From positions 106,144,001-106,208,000 of the forward strand of contig OZ286461.1 in NCBI GenBank assembly GCA_965644265.1: DNA of 64,000 nt, written 5' to 3'. The notes under the pieces were generated by a model, which saw only the letters and a program-made list of their open reading frames with translations, did not search any database and had not been told where the DNA came from. The translations under genes were made by a program, and so were the position numbers. The stretch is from Glycera tridactyla. Its lineage: Eukaryota. Below, one piece after another: positions 1-56,619 of this stretch (the first letter of the stretch is position 1; every line of letters begins with the position of its first letter).

Positions 1-1032
1 TATGCTCCTGTTTTTAAGGATTTTAGCCCTCTAAAATAAAAATAGAAAATAAATAAAATGATGAAAAATGCACAATTGTTATCATGAAATAAGTAAAATT
101 ATTTCGTGATTTTTGATATCCTTCTTTCCTTATTACTCCTTCTTTAAAGAAGACTGCCCCAGCTGTCTCCATGTCAATTGAATGTAAAACGTCTCTGTCT
201 TGTGTGTACCTCCTTTTCGAAGCCGCTCAACCCGAGTAATTTATTTTGATAATACAACAATAAATATATGAATAAATATGTGAATAATACATGCATTTTA
301 TTCACAACATGTGTACGGCATGTCTCAAATCATCGGGTCCAATATTCATACAACATCAGAATTTCACTCTTCATGCGTGTTTGTAATCGTGGCGTATGTA
401 TTATGCGTGTATACGTGTTTTCATGCTGTATATAACCATTAATAATAGAATTCACACACTACAAATATATTAACCAAATCCGACAATTTTGTAATTTATC
501 AAGAGTGTACCCCGTCGACACATCGATTTTTCACCAAGACACCGCCTAGAATCCGCGACCGTGATTGGTCTATTCGGATTTGCGCGTGTGTCCGTGGGGG
601 TAACTTCTTCAAAATTAAAACAATGTACTTGGATTCAATAAAAAACGCCGATTATGTGGCAAGTTGTCGAGAAACATTCCATATATTTGGTATTTCCTAA
701 CAGAATCATTTTCACACTGCAACTATCATGATAATGATGACTCAATCCTCTTATGGTAGCTGCTAAACTCATTCGTACGCAGCTGACTCATATGTTTGCC
801 GTCATCACCCGAGAATAAAACTAATGGGTTGTTTGGCACACAACATCTGTAACACATTCATGGTTTCACTTTCGTGACTAATGTTTATACCTCGTGTCAA
901 ACAAGGGTATCTTTGGTATATAAACGTCAATGTAGATTCAATTACCATCTGGGGTAGTTTATCAATATACCCTACCAAACTTTTCGTGGTATAATACCCC
1001 AAGTTCGGAGACTTGAGTCACACTTTGCAGCC

Positions 1033-1302
1033 ATGGATTGCCATTACTGTTTGCTGAAGCTGATCCTTGCTGGATTCCATAACGAAACTTATGTCCATTG
1101 CGTAAATGAGACATCTACGCCTACTATGCCCATTCTATCTACTGAGCATCCTCACATGGACAACGACCAGTCTGTTTGGATATGGGCAATAATACCCATA
1201 CTACTATTGCTGATCATGTTCGCCCTCGTCACATGGCGGGCGTATAGGAAGTTTACTATGGGTAAGTACCCTTTTTGCCAGTTAAAGCTATCAAATAAGT
1301 AA
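1033..1302 (+). CDS. Antisense small single-pass membrane protein (89 aa)
   Basis: Kozak-like GCCATGG; two N-E-T sequons; TM VWIWAIIPILLLLIMFALVTW followed by RAYRK; TATATAAA at 917-924; donor G|GTAAGT at 1261/1262. Confidence 0.55.
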   Translation: MDCHYCLLKLILAGFHNETYVHCVNETSTPTMPILSTEHPHMDNDQSVWIWAIIPILLLLIMFALVTWRAYRKFTMGKYPFCQLKLSNK

Positions 1303-1348
1303 CAATAAGTAACTATAAGTACTGATTACCCCTAATCTGTGTTTCTGC

Positions 1349-1780
1349 ATGTGTGTTATCTGGCATGGTGAATGTGATATGGCGGGTATAATCGTACTTG
1401 TATATTCAGACTTCTTCAGGATTTGCTTCCGAACTGATCTGACTACTAGCCAGTCGTTCGTACTAATTGTCATTGAAACTATCACCGTTACGAGCGGCTC
1501 GTGCCAATGTCTGTGTTATGACTTGTATATCGGGTTTCACGCGTTACCAGTCAAGCGTGTAATCGTAGTCGCCCAGACCTTGCCTGGCTTTCCCGCCGTC
1601 CGTAACATGATCGTTTCACTCTGCGCTGGTTCACTAGTCTCTAGGCGTTGTCGCCGAAACCATTGGATCAGCTTCGTTATAGTAGTAGAAGTCATATCCG
1701 GTATTTATTTTCTTCGCGCTTGCGAGGCGAGCATGATGAATGCTGAATCGGTCCCCACGGCTGTTCGTAACTCCATTTAG
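1349..1780 (+). CDS. Second antisense ORF downstream of env (143 aa, doubtful)
   Basis: Open for 143 codons and followed by AATAAA at 1939-1944. The V/I/C-rich composition resembles a shadow frame, but the in-register minus frame has 7 stops. Confidence 0.25.
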   Translation: MCVIWHGECDMAGIIVLVYSDFFRICFRTDLTTSQSFVLIVIETITVTSGSCQCLCYDLYIGFHALPVKRVIVVAQTLPGFPAVRNMIVSLCAGSLVSRRCRRNHWISFVIVVEVISGIYFLRACEASMMNAESVPTAVRNSI

Positions 1781-1956
1781 CCGAGGCGATCGTTAGGGCG
1801 ATGTTTGCATTGCTCGCCCAGCAGCATCTCCCCATGGGAATAAGTATTAGAACATGTATCTCAGTGGTAATCTATTTCTCGATCGTATTTCAATGGAAAC
1901 AATTGCTTGTGAAACAGAATAAGTTTTAATGATAAGATAATAAATCGTAAATCCTT

Positions 1957-2904
1957 CTATTGTGGACTAATAGCAGGCCTATTAGTCGTTTGCACCGCGA
2001 TTTCCCGTCTTTCCATTATTTCGTAAGAATCTTCATTATCAAGAGATGGTGGTGGTATATTCCTTAGAGCTGTTACTAGCGGCTCTATCGCTCGCGGATT
2101 TGATATGGGTGGTGGTAATGGCCTTTTCGCGAGTTTGTTCCAAGTAGTCTTCTTGTATCTGTATAGAAACCAGGCAGCTATCAATATAGCCGCTAGCAAC
2201 GATACTGCTATGACTAGCACAATGAGTATCGTTAACCAGAGACTTCTCTGCTTTCTCTGGTCGGTGTGGATCAGATTAAATGGATTAAGGGTCCTCCCTT
2301 TTAATATTTCGTCCATCGCTTTATCCAGATCCATTCCGAAAGATATCATATCATCTAGGCCCAACCTTTCATCTTCTGTAGTAATATCCAAGGAAGGTAT
2401 TGGGATGCTATCTATTGATTTCGCATACCTGTTCTTCGTGTATTCTACTAATAAATCCATATTTAGCAGTCTCGATAATGCTGGGAAATTTACAGGAAAA
2501 TCGATTTCCTGCGACATCTGTCTGTCTGTACATCCATGTATAATGGGTGATACCGATAATGTCCTTCCTTGTCCGTCTGTCAACGTAACCTGACATGCAC
2601 AATCCTGGCTGACCACACAAAACCTACATCCTTCCCTAACCATTAACGCTCTTGTTGGACAACCTATGGAAATGGTTTGAGCATTCATGACCAGCAACCT
2701 GCCTGGAGCCAATGAATGCACATCCATTATATCTTCGTCCATTTCCAGTCGGTAGGAACAGTGTTTTGTAATCTTTTCGTTGTCCCCAAGATATAAGCTC
2801 ATGGCGCATGTAGGGTGGTAGGTATCATGGATGGTGGTCATTTGTTTGCAATGCACTGTGTGTGATTTAGTACATTGGATGAAGTCCATTTCACTCATTT
2901 CCAA
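1957..2904 (-). CDS. env: Envelope glycoprotein, C-terminal part (Cys-rich ectodomain, TM anchor, cytoplasmic tail); continues the upstream env ORF in the -1 frame
   Basis: Cys pattern CTKSHTVHC...TCAMSLY...HC...CRFCVVSQDCAC; TM LWLTILIVLVIAVSLLAAILIAAWFLY followed by RYKK. Adding one T to the T4 run (2903-2906) gives ...NTRFLEMSEMDF... and one ~910-aa Env from ATG 4691. Confidence 0.9.
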   Translation of the reverse strand: MEMSEMDFIQCTKSHTVHCKQMTTIHDTYHPTCAMSLYLGDNEKITKHCSYRLEMDEDIMDVHSLAPGRLLVMNAQTISIGCPTRALMVREGCRFCVVSQDCACQVTLTDGQGRTLSVSPIIHGCTDRQMSQEIDFPVNFPALSRLLNMDLLVEYTKNRYAKSIDSIPIPSLDITTEDERLGLDDMISFGMDLDKAMDEILKGRTLNPFNLIHTDQRKQRSLWLTILIVLVIAVSLLAAILIAAWFLYRYKKTTWNKLAKRPLPPPISNPRAIEPLVTALRNIPPPSLDNEDSYEIMERREIAVQTTNRPAISPQ

Positions 2905-4748
2905 AACCTAGTATTGTCTATGGATATACCAAAAATCTTGTTGGGGGCCACAGGCCTAGTGACCAAACTTGCATTTAATGTGGCAGGTACGCTGAAAGTG
3001 GTTAGCTTGAATAGTTTGAAACTCGCATCCGTTGAACGTAGAGGGACCGTGATATGTATTACCAGCTTATTATTTCTCCATGAGTATTCTGGCTTTGCAT
3101 ATTTATAATACGATGCTGGCCTCATATTCGCAACCCTAAACACAATAAATTCCTTCCTTACATGCTCATCAAGGTCCACTAATGCCTTAAATAAGGTTTC
3201 CTCCGGTATTATTGTGGAAGATAGCTCATTTCGTAGCAAAGAACGTAGGCCGGTCATGAAATTGTTCATCTCCCTTTCTACGATTGTTAGGTCCTGTAGT
3301 AGGGTCGCTATCATTGAAACTGCGAATGATGTATATTGTACACTCGCATATAGTCTTTTGTTCAGATTTTCTATGATTGTTGAAAATTTGGTGTCCACAT
3401 GGTTAATAGCTTCTCCCATCTTTATGAGATGTTTGTTGTTGGTTTGTGCGAGTGCAACCGCTTGTTTTTGGAAGGTAATCACTTTGTCCGCCATATTAAA
3501 CTGATTTTCTTCGAGTGTTTTCAATGCCTTGTGTATGTGTTTAGCCTCATCTTGGGTTACGACGCCAAATAGAGAATTCAGAATTTTTCCTCCAAAATTG
3601 AACAATCCTCGTTCCTTCCTTCTTCTTGTATCATCCGGATTGTATTCTGTGGCTTTAACTTGTTCTACGATTATTCCCATTTCTCGTATGTCGGTTTCGG
3701 TTGTTTTCATGGCAAATACTACTGAGTCAATCAGTTCGATGAAGTCCCTATCGTCTGGTTTGACTTCCGAAGTCTCTCGTCTTTGCCTTCTCTCCTGCCT
3801 TTGTTCTGAAGTCTTGATTTTATTCAGTTGATTTACGTAGTATGTACGTAGCTCATTTGCCATGGATTGGAATCTCTCTGTCAAGTAGTGAACATGACCG
3901 CATATATAGCTTCCTTGCGATTCCCATTCAGAAGTACCTTTCGTTCCATGTCCTTTGCATTTGCCATCGTATGCATGCCTTATGTTTCTTAGGCTTCTCT
4001 CAGCTTCTTCTAATGTAACATTCCATCTTCCCCTGATAACTTCAGCTGGCGTTATCCTAGGATCATAGGGGTTTGTAATATTTTCTAATTTAGCTAGGGC
4101 TGTCCCAGCTTCCCATATACCCCTCATAATGATATTGTCCTGTCTGGGAGTATCTTCGACGTATAGAGCTTCCTTTAATGTATTCAAAGCTGCTTTGAGT
4201 GAGGTGATGGACCTTCCCATCTTGATTTTCTTCATTGTCGTAGATCTCTTCGTTCTGATTCGTGCATTCGCACCGTATTCCCATCGTGCGTTAGTCATCA
4301 TCTCATGTAGTAGATCCATGGATATGGCGGTTCTGGTTGCCTTGATTTCGTTCAAAATTCCTTTTAGGTACATACATGTTTCGTTGTTTGTGTCTTCTTC
4401 AATGTTTTCACCCAGACACTGATGCCATTGAAGGCACTCTCCATCCTGGTTTGTCGCACATTGAGTATGGTTGTTCACGTCTGTGAACATAGTAGGGATG
4501 TTCACAATGAACATCAGGTTGAAGGTAGCTGTAGTAGGGATATAGTTACCCTCTATAGGTGAAAAGTGAGCCCCATAGTTTAGCCTTTCAACCAGATTCA
4601 TTCCAGTTGAATCAAGAAAATCCTGGTTTTGGTCCACTTGTTGAGCATTTCCCATAGCTCCACACCACGAGAGTATCATAAGTAACATCATCAAAGAGCA
4701 ATCTTCTCCAATGATTCGTCTTTGGTGCCGTCTTGGTTTAATCACCAC
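2895..4748 (-). CDS. env: Envelope glycoprotein, N-terminal ~600 aa (class I fusion protein, baculovirus F/errantivirus Env type)
   Basis: Signal-like MMLLMILSWCGAMG (first ATG 4691); basic site followed by fusion-peptide-like RRRKER|GLFNFGGKILNSLFG; heptad region; ends at a TGA caused by a frameshift. Confidence 0.9.
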   Translation of the reverse strand: MVIKPRRHQRRIIGEDCSLMMLLMILSWCGAMGNAQQVDQNQDFLDSTGMNLVERLNYGAHFSPIEGNYIPTTATFNLMFIVNIPTMFTDVNNHTQCATNQDGECLQWHQCLGENIEEDTNNETCMYLKGILNEIKATRTAISMDLLHEMMTNARWEYGANARIRTKRSTTMKKIKMGRSITSLKAALNTLKEALYVEDTPRQDNIIMRGIWEAGTALAKLENITNPYDPRITPAEVIRGRWNVTLEEAERSLRNIRHAYDGKCKGHGTKGTSEWESQGSYICGHVHYLTERFQSMANELRTYYVNQLNKIKTSEQRQERRQRRETSEVKPDDRDFIELIDSVVFAMKTTETDIREMGIIVEQVKATEYNPDDTRRRKERGLFNFGGKILNSLFGVVTQDEAKHIHKALKTLEENQFNMADKVITFQKQAVALAQTNNKHLIKMGEAINHVDTKFSTIIENLNKRLYASVQYTSFAVSMIATLLQDLTIVEREMNNFMTGLRSLLRNELSSTIIPEETLFKALVDLDEHVRKEFIVFRVANMRPASYYKYAKPEYSWRNNKLVIHITVPLRSTDASFKLFKLTTFSVPATLNASLVTRPVAPNKIFGISIDNTRFWK

Positions 4749-5354: not shown

Positions 5355-5975
5355 ATGTCTTCCCAAAATATTGTAGTGGCTTGTATCAGCCAGTTTTGTT
5401 CGAATGGGATAGTGGGTGTCCACTATGACGAAGAGCGAAGGGAGCTTCGCATTTATAGTGGAAGGGTCTCTACTAGTTACGACGACCACATTCTGGACGA
5501 AATTCGCAATTTCATCAGAACAAGGGAGATAGTGGGGTACTACTTTGATCAGGAACAATGTCGTGCCTCTCTAATCGTTAGGTTCAATGGTGGCATTGTT
5601 CTCAACAATGCCAGAGCCGGTGCCTATAGGCACAACGATGGGTGCTCCAATTCTTCTGAGGGGCACGAACATGAGCCTGATAGCCATGACCCACCATCTC
5701 CCCTTGTTTCGAATCAGGATCCCAGAAGGGTTCCTGTTCGAATGTGGCCGAATTTCGTTCACAGAAATTCAGCACCACGTATAGTGGTGCGTCCCAACAA
5801 CTTGTCCCGTTCTGAGGGACGCAACATCGTTGGTCGTGAGGTGAGTGTCTCTTTTATACTCCTTTTTGTCTTTATTATCGTGCTTTCAGCTCCTTCAGCA
5901 TCTTCCTCTTCTCTATACGAGCATTGTAGTCTCTTATGTGTTCTATTGGCACGATATCCGCCCGTAGCCATGTAG
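5355..5975 (+). CDS. Antisense accessory ORF of the retroelement (206 aa, unknown function)
   Basis: ATG-initiated. Internal repeat IVGVHYDEE / IVGYYFDQE with several third-position synonymous differences in this frame. Consensus donor GAG|GTGAGT in phase 0 after codon 162 (5840/5841). Confidence 0.5.
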   Translation: MSSQNIVVACISQFCSNGIVGVHYDEERRELRIYSGRVSTSYDDHILDEIRNFIRTREIVGYYFDQEQCRASLIVRFNGGIVLNNARAGAYRHNDGCSNSSEGHEHEPDSHDPPSPLVSNQDPRRVPVRMWPNFVHRNSAPRIVVRPNNLSRSEGRNIVGREVSVSFILLFVFIIVLSAPSASSSSLYEHCSLLCVLLARYPPVAM

Positions 5976-8900
5976 GCTTCTTGTCGCGCCACTCGCACAT
6001 GTATGAAACCTTTCCATTCTTCGTTGTGGACGTTATGACTTTTACTAGTTTCGACATGTCCGGTGCGCTTGCCTTGCTATCATTCTTCGTTTTGAAGCTG
6101 ATTTCTGGATCCATACTGACTGTATCCGTGTTTGACCTATTGTTTCTTTGCGCATGTTCTCTATTCACAAATGTTCTGCCTCGCTTTCGTCGCCTGGTTA
6201 CAGGCGGTATGTTTGGAAGGGTAGAAGTTTCAGATTCCACACTTTCTTTGTCTTTTTCTCTTCGCGATTCTGTATTTTTCTCTCTTTCTTCTGTATTTTG
6301 CGTATGTCCAATTGTCCGCTCCGAATTTGCATTCTGTCCGTCCTTCTTGGTCCTTTCGGTCCCTCTCAGGGTAGAATCAGCCTCCGGTGTGAATTTCTTC
6401 AGTCTGTTTTCTGGTATTAGATGTTTGAGGTTATGGTTGTGGATTTGCAGTGAATGAAATCCTGGCTTTGGTGTTGAGACTATGATGAAAGGCCCTTCAT
6501 ATTTCTGACTGACTTTGTATTGAGAGGGAACCCTAGGGGTTACTATTTTTGCCCAAACCATATCTCCTGGCTTGAAACCTTTGTATGTAACCTTCTTGGC
6601 TGTGTCATGACGCATTTTCATGTTCTCCGCATTTTTCCTGGCATTTCTGGCTGCTATGTGTCGTATAGCCATTAAATCAGGCCATATTGAAGGGAAAACT
6701 TCTTGTGGTGGGACATCTCGAATTAATGGAGGTTCTTTCGTTATGTCACCGGAGAGGGTTGGTTCCAGACCATACATGATTTCGTAGGGTGCAAATCCAT
6801 GAGATTTGATGGAAATATCATGAGACCAACGAACATGAGGCAAAAATTCCGTCCATGATTTTTCAGGAAACTCCATCATACATGCTCGTAGTGAGCAGAG
6901 AATACTAGAATGTAGTCGTTCTACTGCTGCATTGGCTTGAGGGTGCCAGGAGGTTATATACTGTAGTTTGATACTAAATTGTTCAGCCAAGTATTGGAAG
7001 GTTTTAGACGTGTGAGCTGCTGCTCTGTCTAATACGACCACCTTCGTAGGTCCAAATCGTTGAATCCACATCTTCATAAAATATGTAGCCAGGGTTTCAG
7101 CTTTTTCATTTGGAATGGTTTCAATCTCAAAGTGTTTTGAAAATCTGTCTACGATAACAAGTACTTTCAGTTCCTTATCTTTCGTTGGTGCAACCTTTAA
7201 GACATCCATGTGGATTATTTCAAATAATGAAGCTGGTGGTCTTAATAAAAGGGGTGTCTTTTTATTATTGTAGTCTCTTTTGGCTTGACCGCAGGCTTTG
7301 CAACTAGCCACAAATTTAGCCAAGTCTTCGTACATTCCTGGCCAGTAGAATCGTTGCCTGACGATTTGTAGTAGACTGTTGAAACCTCTGTGGGATCCAT
7401 GTGTTCCATGGTGAAATAATGCTGCTATTTCATACCTCCTAACATGTGGTAAGTATATCTGGTGAAATGTTTTATTGCTCGTATTGTCGTGGAATTTTCG
7501 GCATAAAATTCCGGAATTTGTAAGCAAATATTTGTCCTCCTCTGCCATGATTTTTCTTGCATGGGCAAGAGTCTCTGGCAGAGACTTATTCAATTTATAT
7601 TGATATAGGAATGACGAGTCTTTGTCAGTGGCTTGTTCCAGCGCCATTTTTCTTTCGTCTATCATATATTCTGTATACAACTCGATGCAAGAAGTTTCAT
7701 CCAGTAGTAAGGCTTCCTCGTATGAAATATCATCTGAATCCTCCAGGCCCAGTTGTTTTTCCTCTTTGTCGTACGATGAATCACCCTCACTGTCGGCTAT
7801 GTTTTCGATATCCGTCTCGGACATAACGTTCCCATCAGCGTCTTCCTCGCTGCTGGTACATGATTCTTCCGCGTGGCGGCGAGCGTCTCGCTGGAGGCCG
7901 GTTTTGGCGGGAAAGGTGGGCGTGGCACTTTTCTCTCTTTGACCATGTTGTTTATCCGTTGTGTCGAACATATCGAATCGCCGCTCTGTGGCTTCACACT
8001 CAGATGAATCTATTTCATTGCTGGGCTTGTATGGCTTTGTCCTGATTCCCATTAAACACTCCTTCTTTGTTACTGGTGATTCCAAGAATTCTGTAGTATT
8101 GATAAGACAATGGTTGTCACCTTCTTCATCCATTGATAACATGGGTTGTTCTACGTAGGTTATTCTAGATAAGGTGTCAGCTACAACATTTTCTTTGCCT
8201 GGTTTGTGCAGTACACGGATATTGAATTTATTCAAAAACATTTTATAACGAAAGAGCCTGCCGGTTTTAGTGGCCAGATTGTGTAAATATACGTTTGTCA
8301 AATTATCAGAAAATACTGTTATGTCTGTTTGAGAGCCCAACATTAATTCACATTGTTTCAATGATTCTACGAGTGCCAGGGCTTCTTTCTCATTTGAATG
8401 GTAATTTGCTTGTGATGGATTTAATGTTTTTGATATGAATGCTACAGGCCTGGTTACGTTTTCCTCGTCTTCCTGTGATATAACTGCTCCTACTGCTCTA
8501 CCGCTAGCATCTAGGTATACTGTAAATGGCTTGGCAGGGTCAGGATAGTATAATACCGCATTTTGGAGAAGGGAGGTTTTTATATTGTCTAATGCTTCCT
8601 GGCATTCCTCGGTCCAGATAAATTCATGATCTTTCTGTAGGAGTTTGTTTATTGGTGCAGCTATGGCCGCATATCCTCTTACAAATCTGCGATAGAAGTT
8701 GAGCGTACCCATCAACTGTCTGACTTCTTTGACATTATTAGGGGCTGGGAGCTTTATTAACGCTCCTAATTTGTTAGGATCGGCCTTTACCCCATCTTTG
8801 TTGAAAATATATCCCAGATATTTAACCTCGGATTTCATGAACATGGCCTTTGATGGCGATATACGTAGTCCCACTTGTCTAAGTCTCCACAGAAGTTGAC

Positions 8901-10812
8901 TCATAACTTCTAAGTGTTTTTCATATGTAGGGGTTGTAACAATAATATCGTCCATATATGATGTGACGTATTTTGAGTCCAAAGTGGCTAAACACCTAGA
9001 AATGATGCTTGAAAATATTTCTGGGCTTGAATTTAGGCCCATAGGTGTCTTTGTAAAGGAGTATTTTGCATTGCTGGTATTTATTGTACAAATATCAATA
9101 CTATCTGGTGCCAATTGAACTGCATAGAATGCTGAAGCCAGATCGACTACGGAGAAGACCTTGTTTTTCCCTGCCGCTAAAGTGGCTATAATATCGTTAA
9201 TCGTCGGTATTGGTGATTTTGAGGGAACTATCATTTTGTTCAAATTGGAAAAATCAACCACTAATCTGGGTTTGATGGGTTTACCATCATCATCATACTT
9301 GTATACTACGAAGGTGGGTACACCCAACATAGAATGTGATGGTTTCAATATTCCTGCCTCTACTAATTTTTGAATTTGTTCATTCAAGTCCTTCTCCTGC
9401 TGTGGAGGTAACTTGTATGCCCTCTGATTCACAACTGTTGCTTCTGGCTTTAGTTCTATTCTATGATACACATCTTGTATGACTGCCAACTCGCTCAGGT
9501 CTACGGCAAATGCCTCTCTGTTATTATCTAGAATAGACACTAATTCTTCTCTATACTCGTCAGCCGCAGGTTCCAACGATAATATATCGTCCCAAACGAT
9601 AGGTTTGAAAGTTCGAATCCTAGTCTGGTTCGAAATGTCTACTTCTGTTTGAGTTGATATTTCTCTACTGTTATCGTTTTCTTCCTCCACAACGAAAGGG
9701 GCAGAATAGTCCTGCCGTGGCCATAATACTTGTAATGAGTTTATTTGTTCACCGCTACATGGAAGTGGCGCTGATGGTCTCGCTAATGCTGACCGTTCGC
9801 CTATGTATACAGAACCTGGCATTCCTCTCTCATTAGATGCAGGTCTGGCCACGTTGGCTTGCGCAATGGTAATCCGCGCATCTGAGTCTATATATACGTT
9901 CTTTGAAGTTGGATTCGAAACAGATACCAAGAATGTATTCTTCTGGCTTCTGAAGGCGATTCCCGGAACCGTTGATAGTTGTGGGGTGTTTGTGATTATT
10001 TCATACGAAATATCTAAGGAATCTGGTTCTTTCATGTAATTTGGGGTTATTGTATTCTCACTATCAGCAGTCATATCGATATAACAAGAAATCATTGCGA
10101 TCTCCATAGGTTTCATAATCGTGGAATCTGATGCTCTCAATGTATACGAGCATTCTTTTACCGTTGTCATCAATACGCTGGTGATACCTCCTTCTAAATG
10201 CAATCTGCTCTCTGAATAGTCAATTTTCGCCGCAGTTTGCTGGAGAAATGGTACACCTAAGATGACTTGTAAGGGTATGGCTTCCACTACGAGGAATCTG
10301 ACTAATATTTCCTTACTATTGATAGTTATAGGAATGCTCACTGATCCTATCACTTTCATTTTCTGTGCCTGCGCATCGTATAGTTCTACCTCGTGTTTCG
10401 TGTCTATCTCTCCTCTCAAATCTAACTGTTTCAGCATGTCTTCTGTGATAAGATTAGTTGTAGCTCCTGTATCTACCATAGCCGCTATTTGTGTATGTTT
10501 GATATATATTTTAATAGAGTTAAGTGTACCCAACTTCTGACGTATTCGATTCCTATCACCTGTAGAGAGCGTCAATGATGAATTAACCGTTTCTCTTTTT
10601 GTTATGTTATCATCATTTATTCTTCTGACACTATACACATGCCTACTACTGTTTTCTACATTACTGCCACTACTAATATTTTTCTTATAAAATTTCACTA
10701 CAAATTCTAACAGATCGCAATGATCAGGGAGCGTATGCTCACAATCTATCCCTAATGGACAATCTACCCAATTAAATGCACTCGTGACCCTATTTATGAC
10801 ATGCCCTCTATC
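5875..10812 (-). CDS. pol: Pol polyprotein: aspartic protease, dUTPase-like domain, RT, RNase H, integrase, chromodomain-like C-terminus
   Basis: Uninterrupted frame of 1607 aa in the track plus 38 open codons back to the gag TAG. Motifs: VDTGA (PR), VVDLASAFY/TPMGL/YMDD (RT), DASG...NEKEALA...SDN...VADTLSR (RNase H), H-H-CKAC zinc finger, D-D-E triad (HMDV/VLDR/VERL), KYEGPF. Confidence 0.97.
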   Translation of the reverse strand, partial: DRGHVINRVTSAFNWVDCPLGIDCEHTLPDHCDLLEFVVKFYKKNISSGSNVENSSRHVYSVRRINDDNITKRETVNSSLTLSTGDRNRIRQKLGTLNSIKIYIKHTQIAAMVDTGATTNLITEDMLKQLDLRGEIDTKHEVELYDAQAQKMKVIGSVSIPITINSKEILVRFLVVEAIPLQVILGVPFLQQTAAKIDYSESRLHLEGGITSVLMTTVKECSYTLRASDSTIMKPMEIAMISCYIDMTADSENTITPNYMKEPDSLDISYEIITNTPQLSTVPGIAFRSQKNTFLVSVSNPTSKNVYIDSDARITIAQANVARPASNERGMPGSVYIGERSALARPSAPLPCSGEQINSLQVLWPRQDYSAPFVVEEENDNSREISTQTEVDISNQTRIRTFKPIVWDDILSLEPAADEYREELVSILDNNREAFAVDLSELAVIQDVYHRIELKPEATVVNQRAYKLPPQQEKDLNEQIQKLVEAGILKPSHSMLGVPTFVVYKYDDDGKPIKPRLVVDFSNLNKMIVPSKSPIPTINDIIATLAAGKNKVFSVVDLASAFYAVQLAPDSIDICTINTSNAKYSFTKTPMGLNSSPEIFSSIISRCLATLDSKYVTSYMDDIIVTTPTYEKHLEVMSQLLWRLRQVGLRISPSKAMFMKSEVKYLGYIFNKDGVKADPNKLGALIKLPAPNNVKEVRQLMGTLNFYRRFVRGYAAIAAPINKLLQKDHEFIWTEECQEALDNIKTSLLQNAVLYYPDPAKPFTVYLDASGRAVGAVISQEDEENVTRPVAFISKTLNPSQANYHSNEKEALALVESLKQCELMLGSQTDITVFSDNLTNVYLHNLATKTGRLFRYKMFLNKFNIRVLHKPGKENVVADTLSRITYVEQPMLSMDEEGDNHCLINTTEFLESPVTKKECLMGIRTKPYKPSNEIDSSECEATERRFDMFDTTDKQHGQREKSATPTFPAKTGLQRDARRHAEESCTSSEEDADGNVMSETDIENIADSEGDSSYDKEEKQLGLEDSDDISYEEALLLDETSCIELYTEYMIDERKMALEQATDKDSSFLYQYKLNKSLPETLAHARKIMAEEDKYLLTNSGILCRKFHDNTSNKTFHQIYLPHVRRYEIAALFHHGTHGSHRGFNSLLQIVRQRFYWPGMYEDLAKFVASCKACGQAKRDYNNKKTPLLLRPPASLFEIIHMDVLKVAPTKDKELKVLVIVDRFSKHFEIETIPNEKAETLATYFMKMWIQRFGPTKVVVLDRAAAHTSKTFQYLAEQFSIKLQYITSWHPQANAAVERLHSSILCSLRACMMEFPEKSWTEFLPHVRWSHDISIKSHGFAPYEIMYGLEPTLSGDITKEPPLIRDVPPQEVFPSIWPDLMAIRHIAARNARKNAENMKMRHDTAKKVTYKGFKPGDMVWAKIVTPRVPSQYKVSQKYEGPFIIVSTPKPGFHSLQIHNHNLKHLIPENRLKKFTPEADSTLRGTERTKKDGQNANSERTIGHTQNTEEREKNTESRREKDKESVESETSTLPNIPPVTRRRKRGRTFVNREHAQRNNRSNTDTVSMDPEISFKTKNDSKASAPDMSKLVKVITSTTKNGKVSYMCEWRDKKPTWLRADIVPIEHIRDYNARIEKRKMLKELKAR

Positions 10813-12522
10813 CTAGTGAGAAAAAGGGTTATTTGACCCTGTGTTTCCTGTCGGCCTTGGTCCCTGGGGAGCGTAACCCTGGGAATAGCCTTGGGAATAT
10901 CCTTGAGAATATCCCTGCTGATTTTGCCCATTATATTGTTGGCCTTGAGAATTAAATTGTCCCATGGTCTGGGTCTCTCTTACTCTATTGATGGCTTGAG
11001 CCATAAATCCGTCATGGTGCTGGGGATTAGTAATGTTGACATACGTCTTCATTACTTTGAAACAATTATTTGATGTATGCCCCGGCTTCAAACATGCTTC
11101 ACAGACAGGTGTATTTTCATCTATTTTCTTATTATAATTATTATATGTTCCAGGCCCAGGCGTGCCCCAGGAGGGAGGATCGGACGACGAGTTCGAACTC
11201 TGAGTCAAACTGGTGAGTCTCTTTTTACAGTCCCTGGCTATATGGCCTATCTTACCACAATGGTAGCATGTGATTTTTCTTCTAGTTTCTTGGTCCCCTG
11301 TTGGTCCATTATTTATTAACTCCCTTATTGCGTTCAAAAGTTCTTTGTTTTCGGGAGGTTCTTTCTCCTGTTTCTGAGGGACCTTTTGGTCCTCTTCCCT
11401 TTCTTTTATTATTGGTGTAGTTGATATGGCTGCAACTTTGTCCGTCAATTGCTGCATTTGTTCTGGTAAACTGGATAGTGCCTCTGAACTGGGCAATCTT
11501 TTATCCAATTTATCCATTACTACACTGATAGTCGCATCCATTGTCGACTCCGTAGCTATTTCTTCTAAATTTCCAGCGGTTTCTGCTGCTTCTAATACTG
11601 AATCCACGGTTAATGGATTTGCCATCAACATGTAGTTTTTAGCAACTGGGTTCAACCCAGATAATATAATACTTTTGTATTCACCAAATTGCGCTTGATT
11701 AAAGGCTTGTCCTTGTTTCAATTTGAATAAAAACCTACATTTATTCACTATTCTCATACAAAATTGTTTAGGTGTTTGTGCTGCACCCTGTTTGGTTTTA
11801 TACAATTTAGCCCTAAAGGCAGGCTCACTGTTTCCTTGTACACAGTATTCTGCAAGAAATCTTCTTTCTATTTCCTCGAAAGAAGTGTCTTTTGTCACAT
11901 GGACAGTGCAGTACCATTGCTTCACTGTGTCACTAAGGTTAAATGGAAAGTGTCTGACCTTTTCATAGTCAGACAGTCCGTGTAATGCACAGTATTCATT
12001 GAATAAGTCCAACCATTCAATGGGATTGTTTTTGGCTTGAAATTGCTGTACCTTGACTAGACTCTTATCCTTCACTACGAAGGTATGTTGAGCTTGAGGC
12101 ATAAAATTCGGTGGTTGTGAAGAAGGTGGGCCATGGATGGCCATGTTATGTTCCACCAGTCCTGTTTTGGGACGGGTACCTGCCCCTAATGGGACGTCCC
12201 TAGGCGTGCTTGTCCTTGCACCAAAAGATGTGTGATCAATGTTTGACAAAAATGGATCATAAGTTTCTGGTATATTATATGTGTAGCGAGGGGGAGGGTA
12301 ATATGCATTGTCAAAAGAATGTAATTCACCTGTTCTTTTTTGAGATGGGTTCCTTCTCGTGAATTCCCCTGGCGTAATTCCTTGATTCATATTCTCCTGT
12401 GTCATAATCCCTGTATTTCTGCTTTCTTGTAGTGTAATCCCTGAATTTCCTTTTTCTTGTGGTGTAATTCCTAAATTCCTGTTTCCCTTTTGTTTCAGAG
12501 CCTTCGAAAGCCGTCTATCCAC
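10813..12522 (-). CDS. gag: Gag (capsid-like domain plus two CCHC zinc knuckles)
   Basis: 569-aa frame. Retrotransposon-gag-like segment NNPIEWLDLFNEYCALHGLSDYEKVRHFPFNLSDTVKQWY; knuckles CYHCGKIGHIARDC and CEACLKPGHTSNNC. The track start is GTG, so the true start is uncertain. Confidence 0.92.
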   Translation of the reverse strand: MDRRLSKALKQKGNRNLGITPQEKGNSGITLQESRNTGIMTQENMNQGITPGEFTRRNPSQKRTGELHSFDNAYYPPPRYTYNIPETYDPFLSNIDHTSFGARTSTPRDVPLGAGTRPKTGLVEHNMAIHGPPSSQPPNFMPQAQHTFVVKDKSLVKVQQFQAKNNPIEWLDLFNEYCALHGLSDYEKVRHFPFNLSDTVKQWYCTVHVTKDTSFEEIERRFLAEYCVQGNSEPAFRAKLYKTKQGAAQTPKQFCMRIVNKCRFLFKLKQGQAFNQAQFGEYKSIILSGLNPVAKNYMLMANPLTVDSVLEAAETAGNLEEIATESTMDATISVVMDKLDKRLPSSEALSSLPEQMQQLTDKVAAISTTPIIKEREEDQKVPQKQEKEPPENKELLNAIRELINNGPTGDQETRRKITCYHCGKIGHIARDCKKRLTSLTQSSNSSSDPPSWGTPGPGTYNNYNKKIDENTPVCEACLKPGHTSNNCFKVMKTYVNITNPQHHDGFMAQAINRVRETQTMGQFNSQGQQYNGQNQQGYSQGYSQGYSQGYAPQGPRPTGNTGSNNPFSH

Positions 12523-12528
12523 AACGTT

Positions 12529-12885
12529 TCATACGGACTCCTCATCGTCACCATCATCACTGCTTAGATCCCCACCATCCTCTGCTTCCGTGTCCTCTTC
12601 ATCGTCTTCTTCAGCCGCTTTTTCCCGATCTTCTTCATTTTGCCGCTTGCCAACGTCTTCTGCAGCTTCTTCGCCATCTTTTCCTGCAATTTCTTGATTT
12701 TTGGACAATTCTTTCCCTGCTTTCTTCGTATTTTCGTCATCAGACATGCTTGCCTGCGCTGCTTGACTTTTAAATGTTACCTCGCCGCTACTATCACCTT
12801 CCAGATCACCTAGCTCTCTTCCTCCAGCCCGAACGATCGTCGTCGAACGTGGCGTGTCCGTATACGTTTTTGAAGACTGTTCCAT
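12529..12885 (-). CDS. Acidic 118-aa ORF upstream of, and in frame with, gag (separated by one TGA)
   Basis: ATG start, D/E-rich (EEDDEEDTEAEDGGDLSSDDGDDEESV*); continues in frame as *NVVDRRLSK into gag. Confidence 0.45.
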   Translation of the reverse strand: MEQSSKTYTDTPRSTTIVRAGGRELGDLEGDSSGEVTFKSQAAQASMSDDENTKKAGKELSKNQEIAGKDGEEAAEDVGKRQNEEDREKAAEEDDEEDTEAEDGGDLSSDDGDDEESV

Positions 12886-13187
12886 ATCATACCCGGATTC
12901 TCCACCATATATTATGATGGGCTACCGGTCTGTTGTAGTGTATGCTGCGTGGGGCGGTCGAAGGTACGGATCACCAAATTGCTCGCGTTCTCCTACGTTT
13001 CCTCCCGATGCCAATATGCTTGCAATAAACGATGTGGAGTCCACTTCTTCTTCTCGGTTTTCACTATGAATGACTAGTGTTAGAGTGTCACTATAATTCA
13101 CAAGAGTTCCTGTACGTGGGGGTAAGGTGTATACGAAGTGTAACACAACTCGCTCAAATAGTGATGTATAAAGCAGGCCGTTAAGCT

Positions 13188-13724
13188 CTACTCAGTGAGG
13201 TACTGGATCTTCATGGAGTCGATGTCGTAGCCGTCTGTCTGGTAGTCCGTCCCCTTCCTTGCCCCTGGGTATAACGTCTGGTAGTGCCCGAATTGCAGTA
13301 CCCCGATTTCTCGATTTTCTGGGGATTTTATAGTAAAGTGAGGTATGCCGTTTCTAAGCATATCTCGGCCAATTCTGACGTGTGAGTGGCATGAGTCGTA
13401 TTGGTGACTAATAAGGTGTCCGACATGATCGGGAGGTGCATTCCTCACCGTCTGGGACCATTTTTGGGTTCCTGGGACCCGGCAGTGCCGAGATTTTGAC
13501 CTACAAAACCTACGTCACTTGACTACAGTAAATAGGTCAATTTTGACGTAGGACCGGCAATTTGGCTTGTTCAATGCCTTATATAGAATGTTCTTGACCA
13601 TTTTCCAAGAAATCCGGTGGTTCTGGCGCTTGTAGCTCGTATGATAGCCGCTACTGCGCTTTGAACGTGGTACCCCCTCTAGGAAGTATTGGTCTATTAA
13701 TATTTGCAGCATCAGACTGGCCAT
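13188..13724 (-). pseudogene. Upstream leader ORF(s) of the retroelement, interrupted by a TGA at 13515-13517
   Basis: Track ORFs 13515-13724 and 13188-13448 share a frame and the gap between them is open. The distal part has coding-like codon usage (GTDYQTDGYDIDSMKIQY). Confidence 0.3.
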
Positions 13725-13810
13725 GGGCTAAGCCGCGCTCAGTCTTTTGCCCGCTAGCTTTCGTTCCAATCGGACGTATGTATTGCTAGTTCTACAGGAA
13801 TCATATATAT

Positions 13811-33685: not shown

Positions 33686-34596
33686 CCCCCCAACACAAAC
33701 AACACACAACCTCCGAATCCTCTTCCCTGTCTTTCAATTCTTCCTCTTCCATATTTCGATAATACTACGAGAATATGTCCACAATAAAACATGGCAATAT
33801 CCTATGAATTGAGCGATTTCGCAATATGTAATCCTATTTCAGACAAGAATAGGGGTCGCTGCAAAAGCAAATGGAACAGATTTGCCACGACAGCGAATCA
33901 CGGGCGAACGCAATTTCTCAAAATATTTCAATAGAGGCCCACCCACTTTATTTCCCCTGCGGAGGCCGCACCTTTGACAATACCCTATTACCAACCTCGT
34001 GTGTGTAATCACCACAGCCGAATGGCATGTGTGGCGGAGTACCTGGACACTTAGCATCCATTTAGCACTGACTCTAATCCGCTAATACCCACCCACATGG
34101 CAAGCCCAGAGTGGATCAATGTGATCACCAGGTAGGTGGATGGAAGAGCTTCCCTGAATCCCAACAGAGTTCCCTATTGTAATTGTTGATGGACGTTGAG
34201 GCAGTGCCGTTAACTTTTCCTGTCTCCGTAAATATTCCGTGTCACGATGACATCGTGAGATGTTCTATGTTTTCAGATAGTATAACAGATTCATTACTAC
34301 TACTTCTACCACCACTTCTACTTCTTCCACCACTATTACAACTACTACCAGGTGGCGCCACCGAAGCGAGCGCGCGTACCTTTGAAAAACAAACGGATAG
34401 CGCAAGAAAATTGGCATTTTGGACATGTTAGAGTCATCTACCATGAATGGATCTCAACATGTAAACGTGGGATATACCAGAGAAAAGGAACGCAAACAAA
34501 TGGAGAAGTTTTGGAACTTTCTTGGTGACTTTTCAGTAGTGGTTATGGACCACTGCACAGAGTACATGTAGTCAAGCCTGGCTGCACACAGTCAAC

Positions 34597-35563
34597 ATGA
34601 GTGGGGGAGTAGAGGACAGACTTGATACCATCGTCAAGAGGCTTGACTCAGTAGTGGATCGCCTCGATGACCTCAAGAAGGATATGGCGCAAATGGAAGG
34701 TAGATTGGAAAGAAGGATCGATAAAACAGCAGAGGATCTACGTAGAGAAATGAAGGGCCATATCGCTTCGGAAATAAATCCAGTGAAACAGGATGTACAT
34801 AAGCTTGATTCAAGGATAGCCAACACCGAGTCGAAGATTGGGAAGTTGCGAAAAGACTTGGTAAAACCCTTTGAGCCAGAAAGATCGGTTGCGATATACG
34901 GATTATTCCAGAAAGAAAATGAATCATTAGAGGATTGTGTTCAGAACCTCATTAGGGGCATACTAGAACTGGATATAATTGTGAAAAACTGTGAAAGGAA
35001 AAAAGCATGGGACAAAAAAAAAGGCAGGTGTTGTTTTGGTTGAATGTGAAAGTGAAAATGACAGAACGGCTATACTGAAAGCAAAAAAGCGCTGTGCGGA
35101 AGTAGAAGAGGCCAAACGTATCTCAATAAGAGGATGTGAGTCACATGAAACCAGAAGATGCAAGTCTAATAGTAGAGCAATAGTGTCATATTTTGATATG
35201 GGCAGAGACTATTACGTCACGGCACACGGTTACCTTAGACGCAAAGAAGATGAAAACCGCGACGATCGTAACGTGTTTGCAGACGATCCACAACGAAGGG
35301 CCATGCCCCCTCGGATGGGCGATAATGTAAAACTTGGACATGCACGTGCGGCGAGTAAACAACAACAAGAGCCAAACACACACGAACAAAACCCGAATGA
35401 CTACGGAGATGCCCGAAGTGATGGCCGAAGAAGCAACGGAGAAAGCCGAAGCCCGACCGGACCAAGAGACGACGGTAGATACAGGGGCGGCCGCAATACG
35501 AGATCAAGTTACCGGGACAATCCAGGCCGAGGTGCAAACAATAATCACAACAGAGACAGATAG
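34597..35563 (+). CDS. LINE ORF1 (coiled coil plus RRM/CTD-like, R/G-rich tail); 1-nt insertion in A9 run at 35014-35022
   Basis: Heptad-like N-terminus RLDTIVKRLDSVVDRLDDLKKDMAQMEGRL. Track ORFs 34597-35043 and 34991-35563 join as WDKKKAGVVLVECESENDRTAILKAKK if one A is removed. Confidence 0.85.
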
Positions 35564-38500
35564 AATCATGAGGAGAAGGAAATTAGCGAGTCAATCGCAA
35601 TCGGTGTATGGAATATTAATGGATGGCTAGGTAGCCACCATGAATTCAAAGAAAGAATACTTGAATATTTCAACTCAGATGTGTATGTTTTGACAGAAAC
35701 CTGGGCCAGACAGCATGACATCATTGTAATACCAGGGTACGTGGTATACCAGAACAATAGAAAATTAGTTAATAAAAAGAGTGCACGTGGTTCTGGTGGT
35801 TTTGCGATAGCAATCAAATATACCATTCTAGAGAGGTTTGAGTTGAAACGCACTGATGATGACTATGAAGGTATACTGAGAGTCCAGCTGAAACACAAGA
35901 GATCTGACTGCCTAATAACAGTAATTGGTGTATATATTCCGCCCGAAAATAGCGTTTACGCTACAGCAGCTGATGAGTCATTTGAAATTCTTACGACAAT
36001 GTTATATGAATGTGAAAACGATGATTTCGTGTATGTATGTGGGGATTTGAACGCGAGGGTGGGAAGCAAAAAAGATTTCATAGAGGGGGTGGATGAAATA
36101 GAGGATAGATGTGTGATAGATGAAACCCACAATGATCATGGAATATCCCTTATCAATTTCCTGCTACAAACAAAATGCTGTATTCTAAATGGGAGAATAT
36201 GCCCTTTAAGTGATAACTTCACATCAATCAGTATGAAAGGAAAATCTGTTGTAGACTACGGAATCGTACCCCATGATAACCTATACATGGTGAAAGACTT
36301 CAGCACTATTACATGCTCAGAGCTGGGATTCGCAGTAGAAGGGAATATGAGGGGGCGCGCTTCAGATCACAGTTTGTTGCTCATGAAATGTGTTATCGAC
36401 CACCACTCTAGCGGAGAATGTGAGAACCAGCCTGTATGCACAAGCACGGTAGATGGCGGGGCGGAAGATGACAACGATGCATGTGTAGAACGATTGAAAC
36501 CGCCACGCAGATATAAGAGAAACGAGTTACCAATTTCCTTCATATCACCTGATCTGTTGAAACAAATACAAGAGAGAATAAATGTTCTCGCCATACAGGA
36601 AACCAACCAACAAGCCATAGATATACTATTTCAAGATCTCTGTAAGGTGTATCATGCAGAACTAGGCAAAGTCTGGAAAGTAATTAAAGACACACCTAGT
36701 TCAGGTAAAAGGTTCAAATTCAAAAAGTGTCCATACTGGTCAGATGAGCTGAACTCACTATATGAAAAAATGCATCAAACCGAGAAAATGTTTTTGAGAG
36801 CCAAGAAAAAGAACCAAACCCAGAAACATCTCAGAAGCGAGTTTGCGAGAGCCCAGAGCGAGTTTGACAAGAAACTGAAACAAACTAAACGTAAGTTTAA
36901 TAGAAATCAAGTTCTCAGCCTAGAAAAAACTAACATTTCAGACCAAAATGAATTCTGGCGACAAATCTCGAGAATGGGCCCTCGGAAACCCGCCAAACCC
37001 CCATGGGAGGTATATGATGAAGGGGGAAATGTTGTGACTGAAAAAAAGGTGGTACTGGAAAAATGGAAAAATGAATTTCAGGGTCTCTTGACACCACCTA
37101 TATGTACAGACCAGAATCAATTGAACTTCGAAGAATTTATTGTGGATGAGAATGTGAGAATAGAAGAACTGAATGAGAGAACGAATGATACAAATGCAGA
37201 AATCAATGTATGTCTCACATGTAAAGAGGTTGAAAAGATCATAAAGAAGGCAAAAACTGGCAAAGCGGTAGGCATTGATGGAATCCCCGCAGAAGCATTT
37301 AAAAATCAGGAATCCATAGCCATACTCACTGATCTTTTTAATCTCTGCCTCAAACAACACATGTTGCCCTCAGTCTGGTCCCTGGGGATGATAAACCCCA
37401 TCCCAAAGAGCAAAACCTCTGACCCAAGAGTACCTCTCAATTACAGGGGAATCAGCCTGTTACCTGTGGTCAGCAAGCTGTACACGGCTGGAATATCAAA
37501 TAGACTATCTGATTATATGGAAAAGAATGATCTTCTATCAAATGAGCAAAATGGCTTCAGACCGGAACGGTCATGTATAGATCATTTATATACGCTAAAC
37601 ACAATCTGTAAGGTACGCAAAGAACTAAAACAGGAGACATTCCTAACATTTATTGACTATGCAAAAGCCTTCGATTATGTTAACAGAGATTTCCTATTTC
37701 ATAAACTATTGGCGAAAAAGATAAATGGTGACATTTACTATGCAATCAAAGAAGTCTACAAAAATCCGAAAAGCTGTGTACAGTTTGATGGCAACTTGAC
37801 AGGCTGGTTCCCTGTAACATCTGGTGTGAGGCAAGGTGATTCGTTGAGCCCACTACTGTTTGCGGTGTTTATCGATGATTTAGTAGAAGAGATAAGAGAG
37901 TGCAGAGGAGGTGTATTCATTGGAGGTGAACAACTTCCAATCCTATTGTATGCAGACGATATTGTCTTGATTGCTAGCACGATAGAGGGCGCTCAATCGC
38001 AGTTGAATGTATTGACCGACTGGTGCGATAGATGGCGTATGTCCATAAATGCAAGTAAAAGCCAGGTGGTTCATATTAGACATCACCAAAGAAGCCGAGA
38101 AGAACGCCCGCTTCGTTGCTGTAACCAGGACTTAAAATATGTTGCAAACTATAAATACCTGGGTTTGCTGATAAATGAATTTCTATCGCACCAGGCGGCC
38201 ATTGACTCATTAGTAGCTGCAGCGTCAAGGTCTTTTGGTAGAATTGTATGTATATTTAAAAAGCTGAAGAATCTAGGTATCAAGACGTATGAATCGCTGC
38301 ATGAATCCTATGTTATACCTATACTAAACTACGGTGCATGTGTATGGGGGTACAAGGAGTATCATGATCCTAAGATACTAGAGAACAGGATTATACGATT
38401 TTACTTAGGTGTCCACAAATACACTGCCGTATCTGCAACAAATATTGAAATGGACTGGTTGGATGTAAGATACAAGAGGTGGATGGACATGATTAGATAT

Positions 38501-39133
38501 AGAAATAGAATTGTTAAGATGAAAGGATCGAGATGGCCAAAGAAGATCTTTGCATGGGAAAGATCACTCAAACTGAACACATGGGCCAGAGAAATCGAGA
38601 ATATCCTGTCTTCTTGTCAAATGATACCTGTTGTCCATGAAGATGATGCCATTATTGATCTTGATGTATTGTATGCAAGATTGAAGTGTATGTGGAGAGA
38701 GAAAATATGGGAGGAAGCACTACAGAAACCAAAACTAAGAACTTTCGTAAAGATCCATGATACTTCAAAGCAACAAACCATTGTCTCTTGTAACATATCA
38801 CGGGTCAATAGAAGCAATATCATTAAGTTAAAGTGTGGAGTGCTCCCTCTCATAGTAGAGACAGGAAGATACAAAAATATACCATTGGAGAAAAGAACTT
38901 GTCAGATCTGTGATGCAAATGAAATAGAAGACGAAAGACACTTCCTTCTGGAATGCCCCGGGCTAAAAACAGAAAGAGATACTATGACTCAGGAACTATC
39001 GACTATTGATACATTTGTTAGTGGGGAAGATGTTGAAAGCATCAAACTTATGGTATCAGAACAATGTGTGAAAGTAACAGCCAAACACCTGACTCGTTTG
39101 TTGGAACGGAGGAGAGAACTGATGTATAAATGA
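35564..39133 (+). CDS. LINE ORF2: AP endonuclease, reverse transcriptase, C-terminal CCHC finger
   Basis: Frame is open from the ORF1 TAG: IGVWNING, LTETW, GDLNAR, SVVDY, SDH (APE); QNGFR, FIDYAKAFD, GVRQG, LYADD (RT); ETGRY...CQIC...EDERHFLLEC. Confidence 0.97.
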   Translation, partial: NHEEKEISESIAIGVWNINGWLGSHHEFKERILEYFNSDVYVLTETWARQHDIIVIPGYVVYQNNRKLVNKKSARGSGGFAIAIKYTILERFELKRTDDDYEGILRVQLKHKRSDCLITVIGVYIPPENSVYATAADESFEILTTMLYECENDDFVYVCGDLNARVGSKKDFIEGVDEIEDRCVIDETHNDHGISLINFLLQTKCCILNGRICPLSDNFTSISMKGKSVVDYGIVPHDNLYMVKDFSTITCSELGFAVEGNMRGRASDHSLLLMKCVIDHHSSGECENQPVCTSTVDGGAEDDNDACVERLKPPRRYKRNELPISFISPDLLKQIQERINVLAIQETNQQAIDILFQDLCKVYHAELGKVWKVIKDTPSSGKRFKFKKCPYWSDELNSLYEKMHQTEKMFLRAKKKNQTQKHLRSEFARAQSEFDKKLKQTKRKFNRNQVLSLEKTNISDQNEFWRQISRMGPRKPAKPPWEVYDEGGNVVTEKKVVLEKWKNEFQGLLTPPICTDQNQLNFEEFIVDENVRIEELNERTNDTNAEINVCLTCKEVEKIIKKAKTGKAVGIDGIPAEAFKNQESIAILTDLFNLCLKQHMLPSVWSLGMINPIPKSKTSDPRVPLNYRGISLLPVVSKLYTAGISNRLSDYMEKNDLLSNEQNGFRPERSCIDHLYTLNTICKVRKELKQETFLTFIDYAKAFDYVNRDFLFHKLLAKKINGDIYYAIKEVYKNPKSCVQFDGNLTGWFPVTSGVRQGDSLSPLLFAVFIDDLVEEIRECRGGVFIGGEQLPILLYADDIVLIASTIEGAQSQLNVLTDWCDRWRMSINASKSQVVHIRHHQRSREERPLRCCNQDLKYVANYKYLGLLINEFLSHQAAIDSLVAAASRSFGRIVCIFKKLKNLGIKTYESLHESYVIPILNYGACVWGYKEYHDPKILENRIIRFYLGVHKYTAVSATNIEMDWLDVRYKRWMDMIRYRNRIVKMKGSRWPKKIFAWERSLKLNTWAREIENILSSCQMIPVVHEDDAIIDLDVLYARLKCMWREKIWEEALQKPKLRTFVKIHDTSKQQTIVSCNISRVNRSNIIKLKCGVLPLIVETGRYKNIPLEKRTCQICDANEIEDERHFLLECPGLKTERDTMTQELSTIDTFVSGEDVESIKLMVSEQCVKVTAKHLTRLLERRRELMYK

Positions 39134-56590: not shown

Positions 56591-56619
56591 GTCATATATC
56601 TATACCGTAACGTGACGCA

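Follow-up and report, generated by a model that had tools for sequence, protein, structure and literature searches.

An antisense reading frame under purifying selection, predicted to encode a small membrane glycoprotein, in an env-carrying Ty3/gypsy retrotransposon of Glycera tridactyla

Animal gypsy elements that carry an env gene are treated as three-gene elements, and the surveys that describe them read the sense strand. Among the closest described systems are the 'ancient errantiviruses', Ty3/gypsy elements from animals other than insects that carry an F-type env, have gag-pol-env order and paired LTRs and occur in many recent copies; the words 'antisense', 'accessory', 'small ORF' and 'sORF' do not occur in the main text of that survey (PMC13524379). 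The main text of a study of insect ERVs likewise names no antisense or accessory gene (PMC12992720), and rotifer elements are described, in the relevant section of the article devoted to them, as carrying varied third ORFs, some of them transmembrane (PMC5408684). Antisense ORFs have been reported from the plant Ty3/gypsy elements Retand, Grande and RIRE2, in which they occur family-wide in the space that separates the 3' LTR from the main genes, are long, mostly carry the TRP28 domain and, according to the corresponding part of the text, are proposed to encode nuclear regulators (PMC11963269). Among retroviruses, ASP of HIV-1 and HBZ of HTLV-1 are antisense genes; ASP is presented in the section concerned as a membrane protein near Env whose gene overlaps env, is driven from the 3' LTR and predicts two helices (PMC10186651). 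The FAST-like sORF2 proteins belong to env-less insect gypsy elements and combine a single transmembrane pass with an ectodomain of about 30 residues, an amphipathic N-terminal part, a myristoylation motif, a basic patch and an amphipathic tail motif, and all 105 candidates described are sense-oriented (PMC11952523). The CM2 protein of influenza C is described, in the part of the source that deals with it, as a type III protein of about 100 residues, N-glycosylated and with three ectodomain cysteines (PMC6679168). In the literature that we searched, mostly open-access articles and their main texts only, no animal gypsy element with an env was found to be described as having an antisense membrane gene.

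The locus analysed here lies in a window of 64,000 nucleotides (the whole stretch of DNA under study), and its first 14 kb are filled by a Ty3/gypsy retrotransposon on the minus strand, as judged from open reading frames and Pfam matches. On that strand the element carries a gag with zinc knuckles (10813..12405; Pfam zf-CCHC), a pol with protease, reverse transcriptase, RNase H and integrase domains in Ty3/gypsy order (5875..10479; Pfam) and, as third gene, an F-type env (1957..4691; Pfam Baculo_F, E 9.4e-10, over the cut-off). The 5' LTR (12907..13810, minus strand) matches along 905 bp the 3' LTR located directly upstream of the window (L031:9075-9979), with 3 mismatches and 1 gap, that is, 99.6% identity. 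The pol order together with gag, the F-type env and the paired LTRs place the element among the env-carrying Ty3/gypsy elements, or errantiviruses in the broad sense, and its closest relatives by reverse transcriptase are 57-65% identical to it. The env of the window copy is broken into two frames near 2895-2898, and the region around the break is free of stops in 35 of 57 other copies. Since the LTR pair encloses it, the antisense region at 738-1944, which lies within the 2-kb interval between the env stop (1957-1959) and the 3' LTR, is internal to the element.

In this interval the initial annotation had proposed an accessory antisense gene, on account of an 89-aa ORF (1033-1302, plus strand) with two N-E-T sequons, a hydrophobic helix and a basic patch. 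All of these features are present in the window copy, the region recurs in other copies of the element, and the ORF is under purifying selection there. The conserved part, here called exon A, runs from 1033 to 1261 on the plus strand (76 codons plus one base), and more than 100 copies in the genome carry it. A DNA search of the 2.04-Gb genome, in which 40 of 506 candidates were scored, all of them 92-100% identical, gave a closest set of 30 loci, namely the window copy and 29 others; a protein search, in which 150 of 527 candidates were scored, reached down to 41% identity, and 149 of the 150 contained no stop. From these candidates a spread set of 60 loci was picked across the identity range, three of which, with the full region incomplete, were left out of the indel counts (n = 57). 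As this set was picked by exon A divergence and with a protein search, it inflates both the divergence and the intactness of exon A. Env adjoins the match in 59 of the 60 sampled loci and no relative was found outside the element, which speaks against the captured host gene fragment that had been considered as another origin. All copy comparisons were made within one genome, and no related loci were found in the other sequence collections searched.

Purifying selection holds the antisense frame of exon A. In the spread set the ATG is kept in 58 of 60 copies and the frame is open to the splice donor in 58 of 60, with a length of 217-241 nt that is always a multiple of three plus one. Because these copies came from a protein search, we also checked sets that had been gathered blind to the frame, which cover only part of the family: exon A is open to the donor in 28 of 29 DNA-found copies and in all 17 element copies found by a promoter pattern. 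A pattern anchored on the promoter found 98 copies starting with Met-Asp-Cys/Trp, and a looser one for a Met-Gly start gave 43 matches against 6 in the control; among the 20 Met-Gly matches retrieved, 17 were element copies and 3 were chance hits. Fitting a codon model to 59 sequences, with two frameshifted copies excluded, gave a dN/dS of 0.232, with 2dlnL of 306 against a fixed value of 1, although recombination makes such a single-tree estimate approximate; env, at its C-terminus, gave 0.18 (40 sequences). Constraint is uneven along the exon, with dN/dS of 0.07 in the N-terminal 25 codons, 0.38 in the stalk, 0.55 in the helix and 0.22 in the basic patch. The other five frames across exon A are free of stops in only 0-4 of 59 sequences, and the net change in length of exon A is a multiple of three in 55 of 57 copies, versus 22 of 57 for an upstream stretch of equal length. 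In 500 shuffled sequences an ATG frame of at least 76 aa arose in 28%, and such a frame together with a comparable hydrophobic helix in 1. Taken at the level of sequence, these results support an accessory antisense gene that would encode a small single-pass membrane glycoprotein, and we regard this gene as genuine and previously unannotated.

The splice donor G|GTAAGT pointed out earlier at 1261|1262 (1261..1267, plus strand) holds up very well, with GTRAGT found in 76 of 76 copies. Its reading phase is 1 in the main subfamily but 0 in a second, Met-Gly subfamily, and what is kept is therefore a nucleotide signal and not a peptide. Beyond the donor, the read-through tail of the 89-aa ORF (1262..1302, plus strand) is variable, with ORF lengths of 77-111 aa, and is likely intron; one-base indels fall over 1262-1409 in 25 of the 29 closest copies, and since they lie past the donor, the length of 89 aa is held in only 4 of 30 closest copies. 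Splicing to the CAG at 1407-1409 had been suggested to join exon A in frame to a 143-aa ORF (1349..1780, plus strand). It does give a 199-aa frame in the window copy, but that frame is lost in 53 of 58 copies, and we rejected the fusion, as the frame past 1409 reaches at least 110 residues in only 5 of 58. Among the 30 closest copies, 21 have the 143-aa ORF intact; in the spread set, the net indel over 1410-1780 is a multiple of three in only 15 of 57 copies. The ORF is not a conserved coding exon and belongs to a non-coding block (about 1331-1940) that is conserved. As for other acceptors, the candidate at 1409 would add from 9 to 90 or more residues depending on the copy, and two AG sites found in 58 of 58 copies, at positions 1449 and 1453, would add at most 7 residues in most copies (5-7). 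None of the candidates 1409, 1449 and 1453 offers a conserved tail, and the second subfamily is in another phase; a last exon shared through an acceptor at 12498 was also tried as the tail of exon A and discarded for want of a conserved frame. Probably exon A is spliced at 1261 to an acceptor that adds only a short tail. Three unstranded contig sets from one study, whose RNA kind was guessed, leave exon A of the two compared copies uncovered and contain no joint at 1261, and the loose ends of these contigs match the Met-Gly subfamily; the outcome bears on expression in neither direction.

Upstream, every motif of the initial annotation is found at its place (TGACTCA at 738 and 784, TGAGTCA at 1014, TATATAAA at 917, GCCATGG at 1030 and AATAAA at 1939), and they differ widely in age. 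Of the trio of AP-1-type sites, the one at 738..744 (plus strand) is kept in 53 of 60 spread copies, but that at 784 occurs in 0 of 60 (17 of 30 closest copies) and that at 1014 in 7 of 60; the site at 738 is the only old and conserved one, presumably with a regulatory role. The supposed TATA-like box TATATAAA at 917, found in 6 of 60 spread and 9 of 30 closest copies, is a variant of TATACAAA that arose recently. A promoter made up of this box and the three AP-1 sites is not supported; the copies share a different core, predicted to consist of the TATA-like box TATAATA at 990..996 (plus strand; 42-48 nt ahead of the ATG in 60 of 60 copies) and the initiator-like TCACACT at 1018..1024 (plus strand), for which YCANW stands 30-33 nt past the TATA-like box in 59 of 60. 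The TATA-initiator spacing is known in general for core promoters, and because the initiator lies at this distance, the start of transcription is predicted near 1020, 13 nt ahead of the ATG. The TATAATA promoter pattern also picked up the Met-Gly subfamily. Taken by themselves, the motifs of the window copy are mostly weak evidence: in shuffle tests, three AP-1 sites occurred in 0 of 2000 sequences, but TATAWAW in 17%. At the other end, the AATAAA before the env stop stands as a candidate polyadenylation signal (1918..1944, plus strand): it lies at 1939 in the window copy and about 20 nt upstream in older copies, and 49 of 58 copies have one or more AATAAA no further than 65 nt from the env stop; 14 of 16 copies of the second subfamily also carry at least one. 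From these elements, transcription from about 1020 towards env appears very likely.

The protein predicted from exon A has a Cys-x-x-Cys and an amphipathic N-terminus, two sequons, a Ser/Thr-rich stalk, a Trp-rich membrane-proximal stretch, a transmembrane helix at about aa 48-68 and a basic patch. Two N-x-S/T sequons precede the helix in 70 of 74 exon peptides; all 74 contain a hydrophobic 19-mer (best Kyte-Doolittle mean of 2.88 over 19 residues in the window copy), and their last ten residues have a net charge between +2 and +5. Cys3, Cys6 and a third cysteine near position 23 are kept in 59 of 59 peptides of the main subfamily. The structure model (pLDDT 65) is confident for a long helix at 44-75 and little else. 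According to the positive-inside rule, basic residues mark the inner side of the membrane, and glycosylation is luminal; on these grounds the product would be an N-out membrane glycoprotein lacking a signal peptide, and it is quite likely that this topology, with disulfide-linked cysteines, is the correct one. The predicted product is thus a glycosylated single-pass membrane protein of 80-90 residues, with an ectodomain of about 48 residues. Members of the Met-Gly subfamily (L098-L117; for instance L099:1546-1785) have a different N-terminus, 56-95 codons up to their phase-0 donor and in-frame Trp-Ser repeat expansions of variable length; their start is Met-Gly in 16 of 16 copies, several lack the N-terminal cysteines, and their exon A has a dN/dS of 0.53 (2dlnL 11; 16 sequences). 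A pattern search for yet another N-terminal type downstream of this promoter gave one stray match only.

Searches for relatives of this protein returned little. No homolog of exon A was obtained in a word-indexed protein search, and just one of 1.84 billion representatives matched, a protein with a 20-fold tandem repeat that was regarded as an artefact. No Pfam match passed the cut-off, no PDB sequence matched under E 2, and the low-confidence model found no match among viral folds; the best score in the Atlas, 0.90 with 155 shared features and low recognition, is a lead only. Compared with the systems introduced above, the present family resembles the 'ancient errantiviruses' in its gene order, F-type env, paired LTRs and many recent copies and differs from their description by two selected antisense genes. 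As in Retand, Grande and RIRE2, an antisense ORF recurs throughout the family in the interval that leads from the main genes to the 3' LTR, but those are plant elements without env, whereas here an animal env element carries a short predicted membrane glycoprotein, and the TRP28 domain (PF04195) was not matched by either antisense ORF. With ASP and HBZ it has in common an antisense gene in a retro-transcribing element; unlike ASP, exon A does not overlap env and predicts one helix, and its promoter is predicted to lie about 1 kb inward of the LTR.

The surroundings of exon A are better conserved than the exon itself, which has 69% identity versus 83% in the upstream block (560-1030) and 86% in the downstream block (1331-1940), and synonymous difference is 0.60 in exon A versus 0.25 in env (780 pairs), a contrast inflated by sampling on exon divergence. 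In 21 of 94 pairs the flanks are at least 95% alike and yet exon A is less than 75% alike; the reverse, a near-identical exon A between flanks less than 85% alike, is seen in 6 of 179 pairs. The exon A tree and the flank tree reject each other (26 sequences, AU p below 1e-30). These comparisons show that exon A has been swapped between element backbones as a cassette. Its link with the env type is a loose correlation (Spearman 0.60 over 1326 non-independent pairs), and mean protein identity is 63% for exon A versus 91% for the env ectodomain. Regarding the region as RNA, no window within 700-1950 showed a consistently low z-score across five copies, and no Rfam match was found; the two non-coding blocks that exceed exon A in conservation showed no structure signal. 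At three places exon A is, moreover, locally duplicated in tandem, the spacings being 2540, 628 and 902 bp (G000:C18:97309001-97314320, C29:30140290-30141157 and C13:96572741-96573870).

A second antisense gene, exon B, lies in the spacer between pol and env (5355..5840, plus strand). Its 95 codons are open in 18 of 21 copies, with a dN/dS of 0.065, and it comprises an alpha/beta domain of about 90 aa (predicted, pLDDT 68), a linker and a terminal donor GAG|GTGAGT, present in 18 of 20 copies and in frame in 15. Sequence searches gave no homolog of exon B and structure comparison no clear fold match (best Z 4.1). Antisense to gag, a plus-strand GT..AG joint at 11212-12499 is carried by a single contig of depth 3, with 23 letters on the short side and the RNA kind guessed; its sites are conserved, but in or near coding sequence, and the joint is present as a DNA deletion in 0 of 23 loci. 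It is a weak sign of antisense spliced RNA in the family. An 80-aa antisense ORF over gag (11077-11319, plus strand) that spans the 11212 donor has a hydrophobic run and a basic patch, and it may be the shadow of an Asn/Lys-rich gag linker.

As for the function of exon A, we hypothesize that the glycoprotein of an integrated copy would act as a surface exclusion factor, blocking the entry of related particles, and that its transcription likely starts at an internal promoter of its own on the opposite strand. Such a promoter can remain active when the LTR is switched off, as would befit the product of a resident copy, and old, divergent and freely swapped alleles are as expected of a specificity determinant in conflict. 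We give this role a probability of roughly 35%, for several observations oppose it. The link to the env type is loose, since in 3 of 82 pairs env is at least 95% identical and exon A less than 60%, which is awkward for immunity against a cognate env; the most conserved part is the N-terminal tip and not a variable specificity surface; dN/dS is below 1 in all four parts of exon A and so gives no support for adaptive change; and the ectodomain is small, at only about 48 residues, with no similarity to Env or to a known receptor-binding domain in sequence searches. The divergence of exon A with its frame kept, its cassette exchange, the conserved upstream AP-1 site and the second conserved antisense gene, suggestive of an accessory set, would fit a protein that, like the small accessory proteins of lentiviruses, counters host defence at the membrane by removing or masking an immune sensor or a restriction factor. 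We nevertheless consider this unlikely, given that the predicted protein has almost no cytoplasmic tail with which to recruit trafficking or degradation machinery and that no homolog or motif points to a target. It may alternatively be held that the frame has no protein role for the element and is a captured host fragment or the by-product of a non-coding antisense RNA; the flanking non-coding DNA is more conserved than the exon, which makes an RNA or DNA function of the region plausible, but the dN/dS of the frame, its in-frame indels, the in-frame Trp-Ser expansions of the second subfamily and the failure to find a host relative render this explanation very improbable.

Known small viral membrane proteins suggest two further roles. 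The predicted product of exon A is similar in size to CM2 of influenza C and, like that protein as described (PMC6679168), would have a type III topology, N-glycans and an ectodomain with three cysteines; it could be an oligomeric membrane protein in the style of M2, CM2 or NB, a viroporin or assembly aid for Env maturation, particle budding or uncoating. The fully kept cysteines of the main subfamily agree with this, and 1 of 30 exon A members touches the Pfam CM2 model at E 0.026, under the cut-off. Yet no significant sequence match links the two, the CM2 model misses these loci in the genome, and exon A has a longer stalk, a variable helix and almost no tail; its transmembrane part is the least constrained, unlike a pore, several second-subfamily members are without the N-terminal cysteines, and an opposite-strand promoter is an odd route to co-expressing an assembly factor, so that we hold this role to be improbable too. 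A cell-to-cell fusogen of FAST/sORF2 type, which would provide a second route into the germ line, seems still less probable. Exon A is small, with an amphipathic N-terminal stretch and a single helix followed by a basic patch in 74 of 74 peptides, as in sORF2 (PMC11952523), and the Met-Gly start of the second subfamily points the same way. Against it, exon A is antisense, has the longer ectodomain with two sequons and belongs to an element that has an env, and the strict myristoylation pattern fits 1 of the 16 Met-Gly copies and is absent in the subfamily of the window copy. Moreover, the fusogen p14 is stated, in the relevant part of its description, to need its cytoplasmic tail (PMC7244324), and no conserved tail of exon A was found with the candidate acceptors. 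The probability that is left belongs to a function outside all of these readings.

Returning to exclusion of related particles at the surface, we tentatively propose a wider picture, which we think possible but rather doubtful: a 'complex' env-carrying gypsy element with a second programme on the opposite strand, made of at least two selected, donor-terminated genes, one for the exchangeable surface glycoprotein and one for a conserved globular protein, expressed independently of the LTR, in which the glycoprotein alleles would be exchangeable specificities for exclusion or evasion. If true, this would be the retrotransposon counterpart of the superinfection-exclusion cassettes of prophages, which was not found for animal LTR elements in the literature searched. 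As this family shows, screens confined to the sense strand or to long ORFs miss small genes under selection that may lie on the opposite strand, and published element collections could be searched for antisense, short, donor-terminated frames adjoining env. Exon A also constitutes a natural allelic series of more than 100 copies, with two N-terminal types and backbone swaps, which makes cell-surface roles besides Env-driven entry testable by simple expression.

Some minor features of the element and its surroundings were also observed. The LTR ends adjoin (TA)n runs (13803-13810 in the window; L031:9050-9080), which suggests that the element may have inserted into a TA microsatellite. A TGG stretch resembling a primer site stands next to the 5' LTR, at about 12890-12907. 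Upstream of gag there is an acidic ORF of 118 aa (12529-12885, minus strand) whose terminating stop was not seen in the aligned copies, and which may be an N-terminal extension of gag. The rest of the window contains a LINE-like element with long ORFs (34540-39130, plus strand), a second reverse-transcriptase fragment (55326-56591, minus strand) and a 72-bp tandem array (46564-47655).
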